Origin: Octopus vulgaris
Taxonomy: Eukaryota
Assembly: GCA_951406725.2 (NCBI GenBank)
Contig: OX597837.1
Coordinates: 21,700,001-21,764,000, forward strand
Direction: 5' to 3'
DNA length: 64,000 nucleotides
Shown: one piece after another, positions 12,720 to 34,760 of the stretch
Numbering within the stretch: the stretch's first letter is position 1
Layout: each line of letters begins with the position of its first letter
Notes under the pieces: generated by a model
What the model was told of the DNA's origin: nothing
The model's database searches: none
The model's input: only the letters and a program-made list of their open reading frames with translations
Program-made: the position numbers and the translations under genes

Positions 12720-13925
12720 ATCAGATCGTCTGTCGTTGTCGACGACGACAAAGGACACAGCCTTGTTTGAAGACGGGGAATCTGTGTGCCTGGCTGTGGC
12801 CGATCAGTTCGATATATGCTCGGAAGGCTCTGCCGCAGGTCGAGCACTGATGGTGTACTGGGACTGAAGGTAAGGAGTTGGCTCTGGACTTGCGCAGTTC
12901 GTGTTTTCTTTGTGTCCCTGCAATTTTGCTCTGTTTGTAGGGGGTGGAACATCTGTTAGTGCAGTTACCCCAAGCAGGGCAGGGATCTTTTCGGTTTGAC
13001 CGGCAGTTTTTTAAAATAATTTCCACGTAACTAAACACTTTTAAACTTCGTATACTAGTAGAATGTGTTTATAAAACACCTTTTTCTCTTGGCTTTATTG
13101 AGAAAATTCTATAGTTTGTAAGATATTTGTTGCTTTCTTTTTCTTTAATTTCTGCAATTTCAACCAATCAATGACGTCTATTGGGGTGAAAACATTCTGT
13201 GCCGTATGAATATGTTCCTCGTTTAAGAAACAGATTGGGTTTATTTACATTTGTGAAGAAAAAAAGATACCCTTCCCCCCACCCCTAGCCCTAACCCTAA
13301 AACAGATTGAAATGCAATAGATCGATACTAGGGTCATAATTATGGGTGACAATTTCATATGACACCGCTAGAAAAAACTGCCAGTCAAACCGAAAAGATC
13401 CCAGGGCAGTCTTGCACTTGCAATTCTCAGGTGTCGGGGTTGATCTCAAAGCTTTTCAGTGAGACCTTGAGTGTATCCTTTACGTGCTTTTACTGGCCAC
13501 CTTGTATGCGCTTGCCTTCCGTCGGTTCGCTGTAAAATGATCTCTTGTGGAGGAGTGACTTCCAGGCTTTCGAACAAAATGGCCTGCCCACCTGATTTGC
13601 GCTCTCCTCAGCAGTGTGTACATGCTTGGCAGATCAGCTTGGGAGAGAACCTCGGTGCCTGGGACATTGTCTTGCCAGGTGCTTTTAAACAGCTTTCTCA
13701 GGCAGTTCATGTGGAAGCGGTTTAGCTGTTTGGCGTGACGTTCATAAATCGTCCAAGTCTCGCAGGCGTATAACAGATTATGCAGCACAACTGCTTGGTA
13801 CACCTTGAACTTGGTAGCCAGCCTAATGCTTCTTCTCTCCCGCATTGATTCACGTAACTGCCCGAATGCTGAGTTTCCCTTGGCGATGCATGCGTCGACT
13901 TCATCGTCAATGTTTACAGATCTCC
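12720..13925 (-). mobile_element. RTE (BovB-like) LINE 3' fragment
   Basis: KFKVYQAVVLHNLLYACETW...LNRFHMNCLRKL...IRWAGH, plus a C-terminal C2H2 finger CSTCGRAFRAYIELIGHSQAH; interrupted by a MITE. Confidence 0.85.
12983..13401. mobile_element. Merlin-like MITE with 8-bp TSD
   Basis: TIRs GGATCTTTTCGGTTTGACCGGCAGTTTTTT / AAAAAACTGCCAGTCAAACCGAAAAGATCC; TSD CAGGGCAG at 12975-12982 and 13402-13409; internal CCCTAA repeats. A second copy at about 14883-15320 lacks the right TIR. Confidence 0.8.
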
Positions 13926-14017
13926 AAATCTGTGAACATTGTGTGTGTGAGTATGATTCTGAAAGTGTTATTATTTAACCTCAGGTCAACCCTGTTTGAA
14001 CAAACTTCTATAATGAC

Positions 14018-20322: not shown

Positions 20323-21087
20323 TGTGTGTGTTTGTGTGTCTGTGTTTGTCCCCTAGCATTGCTTGACAACCGATGCTGGTGTGTTTACGTCCCCGTTACT
20401 TAGCGGTTCGGCAAAAGTGACCGATAGAATAAGTACTGGGCTTACAAAAGAATAAGTCCCGGGGTCGAGTTGCTCGATTAAAGGCGGTGCTCCAGCATGG
20501 CCGCAGTCAAATGACTTGAAACAAGTAAAAGAGCAAAAGAGAGTATACATTTTCGAGCATGTAGATTAGTTAGTTACGATGGTGTTGATAAAACATTTAA
20601 AAAAAAAAATCTTTTGAGGAGTTACAGATCGTTCTTCTCCGCCCTTCCAGGCATTGTTACTACTAATTTCCGAAACCTAAGCATTTTTCACGTTTCTCTG
20701 TTTTTTCTCCCCCGCCAGATTTAGATGTATGAAACATCAACATTAAGTAAATCTACACTCTCGAAAACATAGTCAGACAAAATACCATTTTAAAATCCGC
20801 ATTTTTAAAGATAGTTACGATGAAACAATTCAAGATGTGAAAATGATCTGAAACTCCTTTTTAAAAAAATAACTTTTTCAATGTTATCAACATAATAGTA
20901 ACCTACACCCACAAAAATGTTTTTCTGCAAAATTTCGCTAAAAATTTGCATTTCCAGAAAGGAAACAAATTTGATGGGGGAACCCTCAATCTGTAGTTAT
21001 GTCTAGGAAATTTTGTTTCACATTAGGAGCAAACATAGACTCATCCGTTAAATGTTATCAACATTTAAATATGGAAAGATCTAGAAG

Positions 21088-22067
21088 TGTAGAACGACCG
21101 TGCGAAGGAGTGGTGACGATGAATGGCTTTTTTAATACATCGCACGGTCGATTACAATAAATACGGGAAGGAATAAATGAGTACAAGTGCCAGAAGGAAA
21201 AGAGAGACACAACCGGTAGAATGTAAAGAGAAAGATGTTATTGATAGGTTAACATGTGTTTCTGTGTGTGCGTCATATATGCATAATAATAAACTGGCCG
21301 TCATGTTTACGGTGTAAGTGTACAAACATGGATGTATGCGTGTGAGATAAGAACAGAGCATTGAAAGAGTCTAAAACAGGACGTTAGAAGAATGTTCAGA
21401 CACAATGATAATAAATACCAGTTCGTAGTCAAGGTACACGATAGTTGAAGTGCTGTAACAAGAAGTAGTGGCTGCAATGCAGAACCGATTGAGACACATG
21501 TCATGCGGGAAGCTGTGGCTACTATGCAGAGCCGGTTGAGTTGTTACAGGAGTCCTCGCAGGTTGTACTTGCTGTTAACCATGGTGAAGTAATTCACAAA
21601 CAGTGAGAAGATAAAACCTGTGCGAGGGTTGCTGTGTACGTAGAGAGATGGTGTTGACGACGTTAAGATGAAGGCGACAGAGATGGAGGTCTGGAAAGCT
21701 GCTGGACGAAGTATTGATGCGCCTCCATGTGACTGCTGGTGCTGACACTGGAATTGGCTGTGTGCTCTGTGTGGTCAGTGGCTAGACCTAAAAAGGTCTA
21801 AAGCCGAAAGACTTCGACTCGATGAATCGCTGAAGTTTTATAGTGAACAGTCGGCGCAAACTGAGGTTTAGAAGAGACTGTCTCATGTGACCTTATCAGA
21901 AGGCTGCAATTGGTTGGGTTGCACATTGGTGCGTAATAGAGAAAGAGACAAATTGCGCCAATACCAACCAATCAGAGTAGTGGATACAACAGGGTCCAGA
22001 AGAGCCGCCGAAGGCTAGCTGTTATCTACTACGTCCGTACTCATGTTTATATAGAGAGTCCGCTACA
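21088..22067 (-). mobile_element. LTR (about 980 bp) preceded by a polypurine tract
   Basis: Termini TGTAG...CTACA. On the minus strand: PPT GGGAGGGGAGG immediately upstream, CCAAT boxes (about 21910-21930), TATAAAA (about 21836-21842) and ATTAAA near the 3' end. Confidence 0.7.
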
Positions 22068-22193
22068 GATAGCCTCCCCTCCCAGCCATTTTGTGGAAGA
22101 CAAAAAGACGATAAAAAGTAGACATCTGTAGCGAAGAGGTGAAATTAGAAAGAGCAGTTGGTCATTAAGCTGGCACTGTGTCACCGATTTGTA

Positions 22194-22244
22194 GACTTCC
22201 GTGTGAACGTAGGGCTGCGTGTACGAATCACGTCGGGGTCACCA
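22194..22244 (+). other. tRNA-Trp-like sequence ending in CCA; extended primer-binding site on the minus strand
   Basis: GGCTGCGTGTACGAATCACGTCGGGGTCACCA matches the recalled 3' half of metazoan tRNA-Trp (GGYTGCGTGTTCRAATCACGTCGGGGTCA plus CCA) and lies 2 nt from an LTR-like end. Confidence 0.8.
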
Positions 22245-22246
22245 AT

Positions 22247-22681
22247 TGTAGGAAATGAGTTGGCTCTGGAGGGGTACTTCACAATTCCATACATAGTTCA
22301 CGGAAGGAAAAGGCGAGGACAAGATCTCTCCGAACAAATAACAATAATAATTCATTTCGCCTGAATAAACATTTCATCTCTTCGGCCCCGGCTTCTGACC
22401 AGACATGACGCAACTTAGACCATCTCTGTGGAGCTGGAATTCTGACAGTGTGTGACGTTGCGAGTCTGTGAAAATGCCTTCGTATTTTTGTGTCTAACTA
22501 CCAACCCTGCTGCTTCCACTCCAAGGCGTCCAGGCTACCGATGTCCAGAGATGAAATGTTTATTCAGGCGAAATGAATTATTATTGTTATTTGTTCGGAG
22601 AGATCTTGTCGTCGCCTTTTCCTTCCATGAACTGTGTATGGAATTGTGAAGAATCCCTCCAGAGCCAACACATTTCCTATA
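22247..22681. mobile_element. Palindromic LTR-like unit with about 130-bp inverted arms
   Basis: 22249-22380 is the near-perfect reverse complement of 22548-22679; ends TGTAGG...CCTATA. Confidence 0.75.
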
Positions 22682-22910
22682 GAAGTATAACTGAGTTTGC
22701 CAATATTTTAACTATGGAAGAATACAAGAAGACATAATCGGGTTGCCAATGGTTTCATTATTTAATACTTCCGTATATTATATGCTTTCATCAATGAATA
22801 CAAACAAGCAGACGTGTTGAATAATCATCCGACTCAGTAACGTGACCTGAGTTGCCAGCGTCATGAGCAACGCAAATATTGCGTGCTCTAAACTGTGGAC
22901 TAATAGCAGA

Positions 22911-23413: not shown

Positions 23414-23729
23414 GTCCTAATAGCGCTCCCTGAAGCCCCTCTCTTCTTCGAAATTTTGCGCTTAGGCAACAACAGCCTTAATGACTTCGCTCACGCTATC
23501 TCACTGAATCCACTCCTTAAAAAAAAATTCTTCGAATTCCCCTGCTTTCTGCTTACGATTTTGAAAAAAAAAAAAGAAAAAGAAAAAGGAAAATGCGAAA
23601 AGCCTTTCAGAATTTCAATCTCCACCCCATCCACATTTTTTTATTTTCATTTTTTTCATTTATAAGAAAAATTCTTCGTTCTTTAAAATACGAAATTACG
23701 ATTCTCAACGAAAAAAAAAAAAGGCATGG

Positions 23730-25670
23730 CTTTCAAAGGTAGATATTTCATTGCGTTGTCATAGTTTAGTAGTATGTTGCCCCATCGCTGCAACATGTTT
23801 GCAGTATGTACTGGGATTCTTTTCTTGGCTCCATAAATCGTTAGCAACAGGCGATGGTCTGTTTGTTGTCTAAACCGTCTACAATGTATAAACCTGTGGA
23901 ACTTTTTTATGCCAAATATAATCACCAATGCCTCTTTTTCAATTTGGCTATAATTTATTTCCATTGGCAATAGCGTTCTTGATGCATGAGTTATGGCCTT
24001 TTGGTTGTCATCTTCACATTTGTGTAGGAAAACGGCACCTATCCTGTACTCACTATAATCTGTTGCCAGTATCGTTTCCAACTTCGGATCGAAGTGTGTA
24101 AGTGACAAATCTGAAATTAACATGATTTTCAGTTCTTCAAACGTCTTCAGACATTTTTCTGACCAAAACCATTTGGCATCCTTTTTTAACAGCTTGTTTA
24201 GTGGAGTCCTTGTGTATGTTCGGGATATATACTCGATAGTAGTTTACCAAGCCTAAAAAATGCTTGTAATAATTTGACGTTCGTTGGGGGAGGCATATTG
24301 CGTATTGTCATTGCCCTTGATAGGTTTGCCCTTCGTCTCCTTTCGTCAGTTACTTGACCAAAATATTTGAATTTTTTCATCAAAAATTCACACTTTTCCT
24401 TTATTAGTCTAAACCCGTATTCATTTGTTTTTTGGAATACTTTTTAATATGTTCGAAGTATTGCTCTACTGTCTCGCACAGTGATTTTTAGTGATTTTTT
24501 TTTTCAACACTTAAATGGTTGTCTTTTTCATTTCACCTCGAAAAGTTACGTTGCAAATACATTCGCCGATGAAATATAATTTCTTTCCTGTAACACCATG
24601 TGCTACTTTATTTGATTTAAATAATTTCAACTTACCGATTTGTTGCCACATTTCTTCATATGATAGTGATGTTGCTATCCATGTCTAATTGCATTTTGAC
24701 ACCAGCGGTTTTGATTCTCATCTTGATGGATTTTCTATTTGTTGTGCAAACTTTTTTCTCTGGTAACAGGCTATTTATTTTTTCTCGTTTGGTCCAATTT
24801 AGTTCTGCAATGTGATTTAATATGTCTTGTGTTTCCACAATGTAAACACTTCGCTTTTTTGAACAGACACTCTTTTCTCAGGTACCTACCACTGCATGTC
24901 AGACATGGGTTTATCTCCTGATGTATATTGTGTTTTTTGTGAAACACCTTATCCATCTTCCAACTCTTCCACAATAGTTTTATCTGCAAACAATTTCTGC
25001 AATGGATTTCTGTGTCGTGCCTTACTTTTAATATCATATCGCACTCTGCTGATAGTTTCTGGGGAGTGATATCCTGGTTCATTTACAGCTTTGCGAGAAT
25101 TTTCATTCTGACTTCTGCGTCCTTTTTAGCAGTAAGTCCCTAAACATTCAGGCACTTGAATGAGTCTGGAGTTAGTATATCCAGCTTAAATCTCTCGCAC
25201 TCTCTGTTCACTCTACCCGCATATGTAGTAAAGTCTTCATCGTCGCTTTTTCCAGTGTTCAAACAGTTCCAACATGTGTTGAACAACGATGTTTTTTTCA
25301 CAAAATATCCTACATAAAACGTCAATTGTGTCCCTGAAATTTATGTCAGAAAATTTTTTAGGCAATACAAAGTTACAGTATTTCTCATGCACTGTTGTCG
25401 CCAGTTTCCTCTGAATTAAACGTGTTTTCATTTTCTCCATCCAGTCTTGGCATTCTTTTTCGAAAATTTGTTTAAATCTTCGTTAATATGCCTCGAAAGT
25501 GATTCCTTCTTCTGGATCATATTTAAATTCACTTATTGAATTCGCTACATGGTCTGGCGAAAACATATATTTAGGTTTTGTTACCAACTTCATTTGTTGT
25601 AGCATTTGTTGATGTAACATTTGTTGTTGCTGTTTTTGCAACTCAACTAAACCCTCTAACAAGTTTCCAT
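23730..25670 (-). pseudogene. Decayed Ty3/Gypsy (Mag/K02A2.6-like) gag-pol remnant
   Basis: Gag fragments with the zinc knuckle CLHCGNTRHIKSHC, protease-like MQLDMDS, RT thumb fragment, and RNase H (ILATDYSEYRIGAV...HASRTL...NYSQIEKEALVIIFGIKKFHRF...TDHR). Many stops and frameshifts; integrase absent. Confidence 0.85.
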
Positions 25671-25731: not shown

Positions 25732-26068
25732 TTAATGGCATAGTTTCGGTTGTAGTAGCACAGATTTCCGTCGATTTCCGTAAAAAACTTTTATTTTTTT
25801 ACATAAGTAATGAGAGCGAAAGAGACTAAGAGGAAGCAATTTTATGACGAGAAGGTTTCTCTTTGAAGTCGGCCTGTGTGTGTTTGATGGGGTGTGGGAG
25901 ACAGACAGTATGTTGTGTAAGTGAAGTGCTTCTGTTAGTGTGTGCGAAGAGACAGACATACATATACACATACACCGAGTAAAAAATTACGATGAATCGG
26001 CCATACATACATACATACACACACATACATAGATACATACACACACACACATACATACATACATACAC

Positions 26069-26103
<35 letters not shown>

Positions 26104-26655
26104 TAGATACATACACACACACACACATACATGCAGACATACATATACACATACACCGAGTAAAAAATTACACTGAATCGACCATACATACATACACACA
26201 TACATACACACACACACATACATAGATACATACACACACACACATACATGCAGACATACATATACACATACAGCGAGTAAAAAATTACGATGAATCGGCC
26301 ATACATACATACATACACACACACACATACATAGATACATACACACACACACACATACATGCATACATACATATACACATACACCGAGTAAAAAATCAGT
26401 TATCTCTCTCTTTCACACATTACTCTCTCTGTCTCTTCGCACACACTAACAGAAGCACTTCACTTACACAACATACTGTCTGTCTCCCACACCCCATCAA
26501 ACACACACAGGCCGACTTCAAAGAGAAACCTTCTCGTCATAAAATCGCTTCCTCTTAGTCTCTTTCGCTCTCATTACTTATGTAAAAAAATAAAATTTTT
26601 TTACGGAAATCGACGGAAATCTGAGCTACGACATGCGAAACTTCGCCTTTTTAAT
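25732..26655. mobile_element. Foldback element with about 210-bp inverted arms and an internal CA/TA-rich tandem array
   Basis: 25743-25956 is nearly identical to the reverse complement of 26429-26642; interior repeats CATACACCGAGTAAAAAATTAC..GAATCG.CCATAC. Confidence 0.85.
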
Positions 26656-33826: not shown

Positions 33827-34354
33827 ATTATATTTTTCATTGTTCAATCAGGAGGGAATAACTTCACCTATCACTCTTAACAGGGCCTCTGAGATTGCCG
33901 AAAAGGATGTGGGGAGGAAGGCATCTTTGATATGGAAACTTAGCCTGAATGCTTACTATAGAATGGAGTCCTGATTTAAGGTGCCAAAGAGCCAAGTGGT
34001 GGCATTAAATGAGACAATGAAGTCTATTTACCCACGTAGGCCATGATGGATGTTAATGGGAGTCAAACTCAAAACAGAAAGAGCTGGAATAAATACTTGC
34101 AAGGCATGCCATCCCATTCCATGTCATAATGATTCTGCTAGTCCTTTATTCTAGATTGATATTTCATTAACCTTGGAAGAAGAGAAGGCAAAGTTTACCT
34201 CAGGGGGATTCGAAATCAGAATGTAGGAAGCTGGAACCATAGGGCATTTGGTTTGATCCTCAACTAGTTTGCCATCAATGCAGTGGACAGTATATATACA
34301 CTATGCCCAATATTTTTGTACAAATCATCTCAGATGTATAATACTATTTCAGCT

Positions 34355-34760
34355 GGTACAAAGCTATATGGCTCAGAAACCTGGATGTTATCAAAGAAGC
34401 TTGAGAGCCGGTTGGATGGAACTTACACTCGCCTCCTTATGAGAGCTCAAAATATCTCGTGGAAGTGTCATCCAACCAAAGTACAAATATATGGGAAATT
34501 ACCACCTGTATCATCTCTTGTGAAAGGTAGAAGAGTCCAGTTTGCTGGACATTGTTGTAGAGCTGAAAACGAAGTAATTTCTACTCTTCTCCTCTGGAAG
34601 CCATCTGCTCACGATACCAGAGGGCGCACACTCTCCTACCCTGATGTAATCTCCAGGGATACAGGCATCCAGCAACAAGACCTCCGTAATGCTATGATGG
34701 ACCGTGAGGTCTGGCATAACATAGTAGATTCCCTTGTCTTGACCACGGTCAAACAATGAA
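34355..34760 (+). mobile_element. RTE-clade LINE ORF2 3' fragment
   Basis: LYGSETWMLSKKLESRLDGTYTRLLMRAQNISW...RRVQFAGHC. Confidence 0.8.

Follow-up and report, generated by a model that had tools for sequence, protein, structure and literature searches.

A hairpin of one Trp-primed LTR-retrotransposon family joined to the interior and LTR of another in the Octopus vulgaris genome

Within the 64,000-nucleotide stretch of Octopus vulgaris DNA analysed here (the window), we resolve an insertion of about 1.6 kb (1594 bp without its target copies) at 21084-22685, with the element read on the minus strand. In that reading, the order is a 4-bp target copy, a segment A, the dinucleotide AT, a primer-binding site (PBS), a non-coding interior, a polypurine tract (PPT), an LTR (B) and a second 4-bp target copy. 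The insertion probably arose when strong-stop DNA of one family, A, primed its own copying, annealed through the PBS to the minus strand of a co-packaged element of another family, B, and was integrated. It is a real and single insertion, and probably an inert one. As a reverse-transcription chimera, the insertion is of a known kind and the hairpin form is the new part; it is of interest because that form recurs with target duplications.

Structure of the insertion and its parental families

The first-pass annotation had described a small retroelement with two different LTRs inside one target-site duplication, and most of its measurements hold. The same 4 bp (GAAG on the plus strand) are read directly at both flanks, as the left copy at 22682-22685 and the right copy at 21084-21087. 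Families A and B both make 4-bp duplications, and the chance of any given 4-bp flank match is about 0.4-0.5%. Segment A lies at 22681-22247 (435 bp, ending in TACA), exactly as proposed; it had been taken for an intact LTR, but holds a 135-bp inverted repeat, with arms differing at 7/135 positions, and is a fold-back of the U5 end of another family. Given the direction of family A, in which the start of the segment, reversed, is the PBS-touching end, alignment places segment A as inverted A-LTR positions ~448-140 followed by 314-448 in the normal sense.

The inverted piece of about 305 nt (22377-22681, plus strand) is the PBS-side (R-U5) end of a family A LTR, 91% identical to positions 139-446 of 448 in a natural copy, and would represent minus-strand strong-stop DNA. 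Its start coincides exactly with the primer-touching terminus of the LTR and with the target duplication, and it includes the left arm (22547-22681) and the loop (22382-22546) of the hairpin. The fold-back junction (22377-22381, minus strand) is a 5-nt exact microhomology, corresponding to an imperfect one of about 12 nt in family A copies. Beyond it, the right arm (22247-22381, minus strand) is the last 135 nt of the family A LTR, the U5 end closing in TACA, in normal orientation and 93% identical to natural-copy positions 314-448. As the family A end is inverted in the hairpin, both outer ends of the insertion are U5 ends. The left terminus reads TA here and has the TG form at 22680 in contigs of three other runs; TG has mutated to TA in this genome.

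Next come a 2-nt AT spacer (22245-22246, minus strand), which comparison with A copies identifies as that of family A LTR-PBS junctions, and an 18-nt PBS (22244-22227, minus strand) complementary to genomic tRNA-Trp(CCA) genes. Together with 14 further nt carried by family B interiors, the tRNA complement extends over 22213-22244 (minus strand), a match of 32 nt with one mismatch that bears out the earlier assignment to tRNA-Trp. The interior, estimated beforehand at about 180 bp, measures 179 bp (22246-22068). Its portion beyond the PBS (22068-22226, minus strand) matches the non-coding interior of the non-autonomous family B and ends in the expected PPT, which we read at 22083-22073 (minus strand), plus 5 nt. 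LTR B (21088-22067, minus strand) is a complete 3' LTR of family B, 980 bp long with TGTAG...CTACA, and copies elsewhere confirm that it is a real LTR. Among the signals ascribed to it, a motif scan recovers CCAAT (21929 and 21913) and TATAAAA (21842) but no exact AATAAA. Segment A and LTR B share no similarity, as first reported (best blastn E 0.62), and the alternative named at that stage, that segment A is a deleted form of B, is thereby ruled out. The insertion thus has a PBS, a PPT, TG...CA termini and a target duplication, but no two direct near-identical LTRs. It is not a canonical LTR retrotransposon, with segment A a hairpin and A and B unrelated.

Family A is a separate Trp-primed family with Gypsy-type RT and RNase H and 4-bp duplications. 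Its intact LTRs are mostly 433-459 bp, run in the direction opposite to the one first assigned and occur mostly as solo LTRs; a perfect 4-bp duplication flanks 14 of the 22 copies in which both termini are present. One decayed copy retains two A LTRs, a GACA duplication and RT followed by RNase H. When 40 of 236 candidates were scored, the match of the other A copies to segment A was confined to its first 305-309 nt, beyond which they differ, and the fold-back junction itself was seen at no other of the 40 places scored out of 110 candidates. With the junction unique and the flanks of the hairpin alone mismatched, we reject segment A as a MITE or other DNA transposon. A pattern search allowing at most one mismatch finds the A end, AT and PBS together at 7 places; the pattern itself required AT, a spacer first revealed by two A copies found without requiring it. 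The six ordinary places match the tRNA for 10-14 nt and run into A's own interior, and only this insertion runs into that of B. Pattern searches detected no A-PBS junction at the other end of A (8/8 and 30 of 83 matches examined). TTATA occurs near A-LTR position 93 and the junction at 139-144, with no clear TATA about 30 nt before the junction. In folding predictions, the two junction motifs pair in 14 of 27 natural A copies, but 16 of 42 control end points also pair over long range, so that the predicted hairpin is weak; this and the lack of a well-placed TATA count against the pathway proposed below.

The LTR B sequence is widely repeated (40 of 1625 candidates scored), and 4-bp duplications flank 18 of the 25 copies with termini. 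By comparison of copies, we assign the interior to family B: the B start follows it at 34 of 40 places (drawn from 70 candidates, with one call doubtful and four pairs representing the same or duplicated loci), and many of these places are B-interior-B or tandem. Family A adjoins the B interior at none of the 40 but this one, and the alternating A-B array once suggested is accordingly not seen. The idea of a TRIM-like family fares no better, given that the A-interior-B arrangement is single-copy among the places examined and the interior belongs to B. TRIMs are defined as elements of less than 1 kb with 100-250-bp direct repeats, in the available text of PMC6934838; the insertion, at 1594 bp with no direct repeat, is not one. 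All B elements observed are non-coding, and the B interior, as part of B, resembles a TRIM in being non-coding from PBS to PPT and multi-copy. Short-LTR variants of B elsewhere are TRIM-like, and B-interior-B units repeated in tandem, whose LTRs are full-length or shortened and which are also TRIM-like, are seen at L062, L070/L071, L082 and L173. At two further loci (L077 and L090), the B interior and B LTR start are followed by an inverted near-complete B LTR, and these may be fold-backs at the 3' LTR.

Elsewhere in the window, an RNase H domain fragment of an LTR-retrotransposon RT (23683-24243, minus strand) lies 1 kb from the insertion, with no apparent link to it. Open frames at 13480-13974 (minus strand) and 34268-34759 (plus strand) resemble C-terminal fragments of LINEs, and at 25734-26650, inverted repeats of 223 nt (96%) surround a short tandem of ~150-bp units in a MITE-like arrangement.

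Cross-family joins and other hairpin-plus-PBS insertions

Our genome-wide searches cover the 2.8-Gb assembly. The tRNA-Trp(CCA) genes complementary to the PBS were found by DNA search, with 8 of 11 scanned loci holding one; ARAGORN reported no tRNA gene at eight other loci. More than 12 tRNA-Trp-like matches cluster at C6:58.38-58.46 Mb (G000), two of them confirmed by ARAGORN. Exact matches to the PBS number 138 (control 0), of which 100 were examined. At 13 of the 100, the tRNA complement continues beyond 18 nt (L105, L107, L242, L256, L261, L275, L282, L286, L287, L288, L305, L306 and L307), extending as far as the anticodon arm at L282 and L305. In some cases this may be a feature inherited within the family, and the family B interior itself starts with 32 nt of tRNA-Trp complement. 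The main Trp-primed family accounts for 51 of 90 sites, which fall in the main cluster on both sides. It is a young element of about 2 kb without long ORFs (L312, L313, L315 and L337), whose LTR pairs are 99.5-99.8% identical.

Swaps between families at the level of the PBS recur. An LTR of C, a third Trp-primed Gypsy family, is followed by PBS, B interior and LTR B at two places, with intact LTRs (L063/L182 at C16:30.71 Mb and L066/L183 at C12:45.35 Mb). The C LTRs of the two chimeras are 76% alike and lie in unrelated flanks; one chimera is truncated and the other has unmatched flanks, leaving both without a duplication test. A similar join of F, PBS, D interior and LTR D occurs once (L328, C4:92.81 Mb), with the 3' LTR of F coming from a pol-coding family; a search over 9.9 kb did not find the upstream LTR of this F element. 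The order RT-RNase H-integrase is complete in C and F copies, and in the A copy, RT is followed by RNase H in the part that was scanned. Three further candidates for cross-family joins were rejected, L272 (D-B) with its B LTR standing apart and L253 and L273 as ordinary same-LTR pairs. The A-B join itself is a single copy among the places examined and not a family.

The hairpin form is also found elsewhere. At five of the 100 exact-PBS sites, the LTR end next to the PBS is present upstream as an inverted copy: L249 (C3:174.33 Mb), L268 (C6:28.84 Mb), L299 (C13:81.71 Mb), L301 (C14:19.00 Mb) and L305 (C14:32.53 Mb). The interior search added a sixth locus, L172 (C6:55.68 Mb), with small hairpins and a PBS at both ends. 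These six insertions span 103-855 bp and belong to other Trp-primed families. With ends set by eye at TG...CA, their flanks are GCCT/GCCT, ACAG/ACAG, CTAT/CTAT, CATG/TATG, GTGC/GTCT and CATC/CATC, such that the 4-bp duplication is perfect in four, present at 3 of 4 bases in one and absent in one. Four perfect duplications in six would arise by chance with a probability of 7e-9 if the loci are independent, and the independence of L249, L268 and L299 is doubtful because L249 shares its junction with L268 and its hairpin with L299. Inverted repeats at L105, L107 and L176 were set aside as not being LTR-bound hairpins.

These loci differ from the window insertion in jumping to their own U3 and not to the PBS of another family. 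In four of them, the strand jumps onto the U3 of its own family after the 18-nt PBS, and in three of the four the copy runs to the U3 start (L299 is shortened). At L305, the strand reads on into the tRNA, and the long arm ends, on our reading, about 35 nt past the family's equivalent of the TATA. At L301, the long arm stops at position 205 of the LTR and synthesis picks up again at 204. Both are consistent with an arm end that corresponds to the RNA 5' end.

Formation of the insertion

The orientation of segment A, its junctions, the family origin of each part, the target duplication and the recurrence of the hairpin form are observed, and a pathway within a retrotransposon particle would account for them. 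RT primed by tRNA-Trp would first have copied the R-U5 region of A, about 305-312 nt. Its 3' end would then have skipped the first strand transfer and folded onto its own nt 123-135, producing the junction that is read in the insertion, and RT would have extended that end back along the 5' 135 nt, across the AT spacer and over 18 nt of the tRNA. Consistent with this step, the inverted copy starts at the primer-adjacent terminus, and the copied-back strand crosses the spacer and takes in 18 nt of tRNA complement. The resulting PBS-ended product, similar to plus-strand strong-stop DNA, could have annealed to the PBS complement in the minus strand of a co-packaged B that used the same tRNA, and its extension would yield hairpin, PBS, interior, PPT and LTR B. 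With the tRNA removed, both ends are U5 ends with CA plus a short spacer, and a Gypsy integrase would have processed both to leave the 4-bp duplication. That integrase accepts two U5 ends is what we infer because target duplications are present; the co-packaging, the order of the steps and the start site are likewise parts of the model. Such an element would be dead on arrival because it has no U3 promoter at its 5' end and no matching R repeats. The heterologous cassette of the first-pass annotation therefore survives as one integration of two-family sequence, with the non-canonical strand transfer it implied, but not as two intact heterologous LTRs.

The rival that fares best, though we consider it unlikely, is that an intact A LTR, joined to the B interior through intermolecular plus-strand transfer, was integrated and that a later two-jump chromosomal template switch put an inverted copy of the LTR's 3' part in place of its first ~314 nt by way of 5-bp terminal repeats and internal microhomology. 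Intact heterologous 5' LTRs on the B interior do exist twice, the length is nearly kept (435 versus about 448) and the arms look younger than the family LTR pairs. The hairpin arms are 5.2% apart (95% CI 2-10%), and the sampled LTR pairs are more diverged, at 10-13% for A (87-90% identical) and 8-11% for B (89-92%); pairs of C and E reach 98.5% and 95.8% identity. The arm similarity fits a later origin or conversion between the arms, and at one arm position, both arms here carry the same derived base where two other runs show the family state. The nearest-neighbour identities of the A and B parts are typical of their own families. On these figures, dating does not separate formation at integration from later rearrangement. 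Against the two-jump switch, three events are needed, one of them a 440-nt jump on 5 bp, and the five or six hairpin-PBS insertions elsewhere, which come with duplications of their own, are left unexplained. Moreover, no such fold-back was found among the solo A, B or C LTRs that we aligned.

Somewhat less probable again is the replacement of the 5' LTR of a resident B-interior-B element by a free hairpin cDNA of A, through recombination that kept the B duplication and used homology in the PBS on one side and TGTAG on the other. This would account for the duplication, and the A part does look nearer to its relatives, at 92% (95-96% over a single 200-nt piece), than the B part, at 85%. However, a figure of 85% is usual in B, where the nearest-neighbour median is 85.9%, and the left homology is just 5 bp. 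A self-primed hairpin would still be required, and other hairpin ends integrated directly.

It is very unlikely that A and B inserted independently and were brought together by a deletion between their PBSs and an inversion, with the 4-bp match a matter of chance. The available part of a study of Triticeae elements states that most complex elements arise by post-integration recombination (PMC1950507), and an empty site did not turn up, with none of the joints listed (15 of 57) in contigs of four runs skipping the element; a useful paralogue of the upstream flank was not found either. Recombinants of this sort should nonetheless be without matching flanks (PMC1950507), the chance of a match being about 0.4%. 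In addition, the two ends coincide precisely with LTR termini, and perfect duplications are likewise present at 4 of 6 similar loci.

The two remaining explanations we regard as scarcely credible. An element or array that normally propagates with two different LTRs, whether an unorthodox Gypsy or a TRIM, would be in keeping with the C-interior-B form seen twice and with the junctions common to some hairpin loci; A-interior-B, however, represents 1 of 7 A-PBS junctions and 1 of 40 interior places, and the two C-B chimeras are dissimilar in their C LTRs and unrelated in their flanks. The ordinary same-LTR elements in A, B and C further argue against this reading and the multi-LTR Gypsy group considered earlier. 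Inverted chimeras are a known long-read artefact, and the insertion could in principle be an assembly error of this type. One run's short-read contigs span the arm-PBS junction fully and also cover the fold junction, with 0 differences in each case, but with less than 31 letters on the short side of the latter, and this run may be the assembly's own source. An artefact is countered by the 7 differences between the arms, by the match at the arm-PBS junction and by the left junction, which appears in contigs of 4/4 runs (labelled as four organisms); the right junction appears in two.

Relation to known systems and implications

Self-priming of minus strong-stop DNA is regarded as a dead end of the test tube, blocked by nucleocapsid. 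In the available portions of the review PMC6088434, which cites Guo et al. (1997), self-priming of HIV-1 minus-strand strong-stop DNA is an in vitro dead end, undetected in endogenous reactions. As here, the folded 3' end is extended by RT into an inverted copy of the PBS side; unlike there, the octopus product would have been salvaged by way of the PBS, linked to another family and integrated in the germline, and more than once. A search of the open literature, with most subscription journals and old scans outside its scope, did not turn up any description of self-primed strong-stop DNA that had been integrated.

The later steps have closer parallels, as far as the accessible parts of the sources extend. 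Transfer of plus strong-stop DNA to the PBS of the other genome has been proposed for HIV-1 proviruses with asymmetric LTRs (PMC9278108), and tRNA read-through at the second-strand transfer is documented for HIV-1 (PMC12657518); read-through of this kind is seen here too, at 13 of the 100 PBS sites. These proviruses share with our insertion the transfer of strong-stop DNA to the PBS of a co-packaged genome, followed by integration (PMC9278108, PMC12657518), but in them both sides come from one virus, the left end is a normal U3 and the U5 is not inverted, deletions being seen instead. The "complex" LTR elements of Triticeae are likewise reverse-transcription chimeras inserted once with a flanking duplication, but have three LTRs, of which the outer ones are similar, derive from one family and lack a hairpin (PMC1950507). 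Chimeric elements and TRIMs of sugar beet (PMC13570524) and TRIMs of bivalves (PMC6934838) resemble family B in their short non-coding PBS-PPT interior, tandem arrays, solo LTRs and LTRs donated by other families. The B LTR, in contrast, is about 980 bp, and this copy is without direct repeats; the accessible text describes no fold-back LTR for the sugar beet (PMC13570524) or bivalve (PMC6934838) elements. Troyka, an unusual lineage of animal LTR elements possibly behind the earlier notion of an unorthodox group (PMC12440569), has CG termini and 3-bp duplications and not the TG...CA and 4 bp seen here, so the insertion is not of this type. The Helenus/Ajax paper, in the parts available, holds nothing bearing on the insertion.

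If the reading of a self-primed, PBS-rescued strong-stop DNA is right, these integrated fossils would show that self-priming takes place in the germline, that its product, by passing for plus strong-stop DNA, can return to the pathway and that two U5 ends are acceptable to integrase. Co-packaging of unrelated families with a common primer would be recorded in the cross-family join, and the ends of hairpin arms would mark the transcription starts of extinct elements. We also entertain, as a tentative and on balance doubtful extension, that strong-stop DNAs are integration-competent and that Trp-primed Gypsy families of this genome routinely rescue self-primed hairpins via the PBS, swap LTR ends with one another and integrate LTR-only molecules with two U5 ends or with U5 and U3. 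Were this true, some "solo LTRs" would never have belonged to a full element, and both LTR-pair dating and solo-LTR ratios would be biased.
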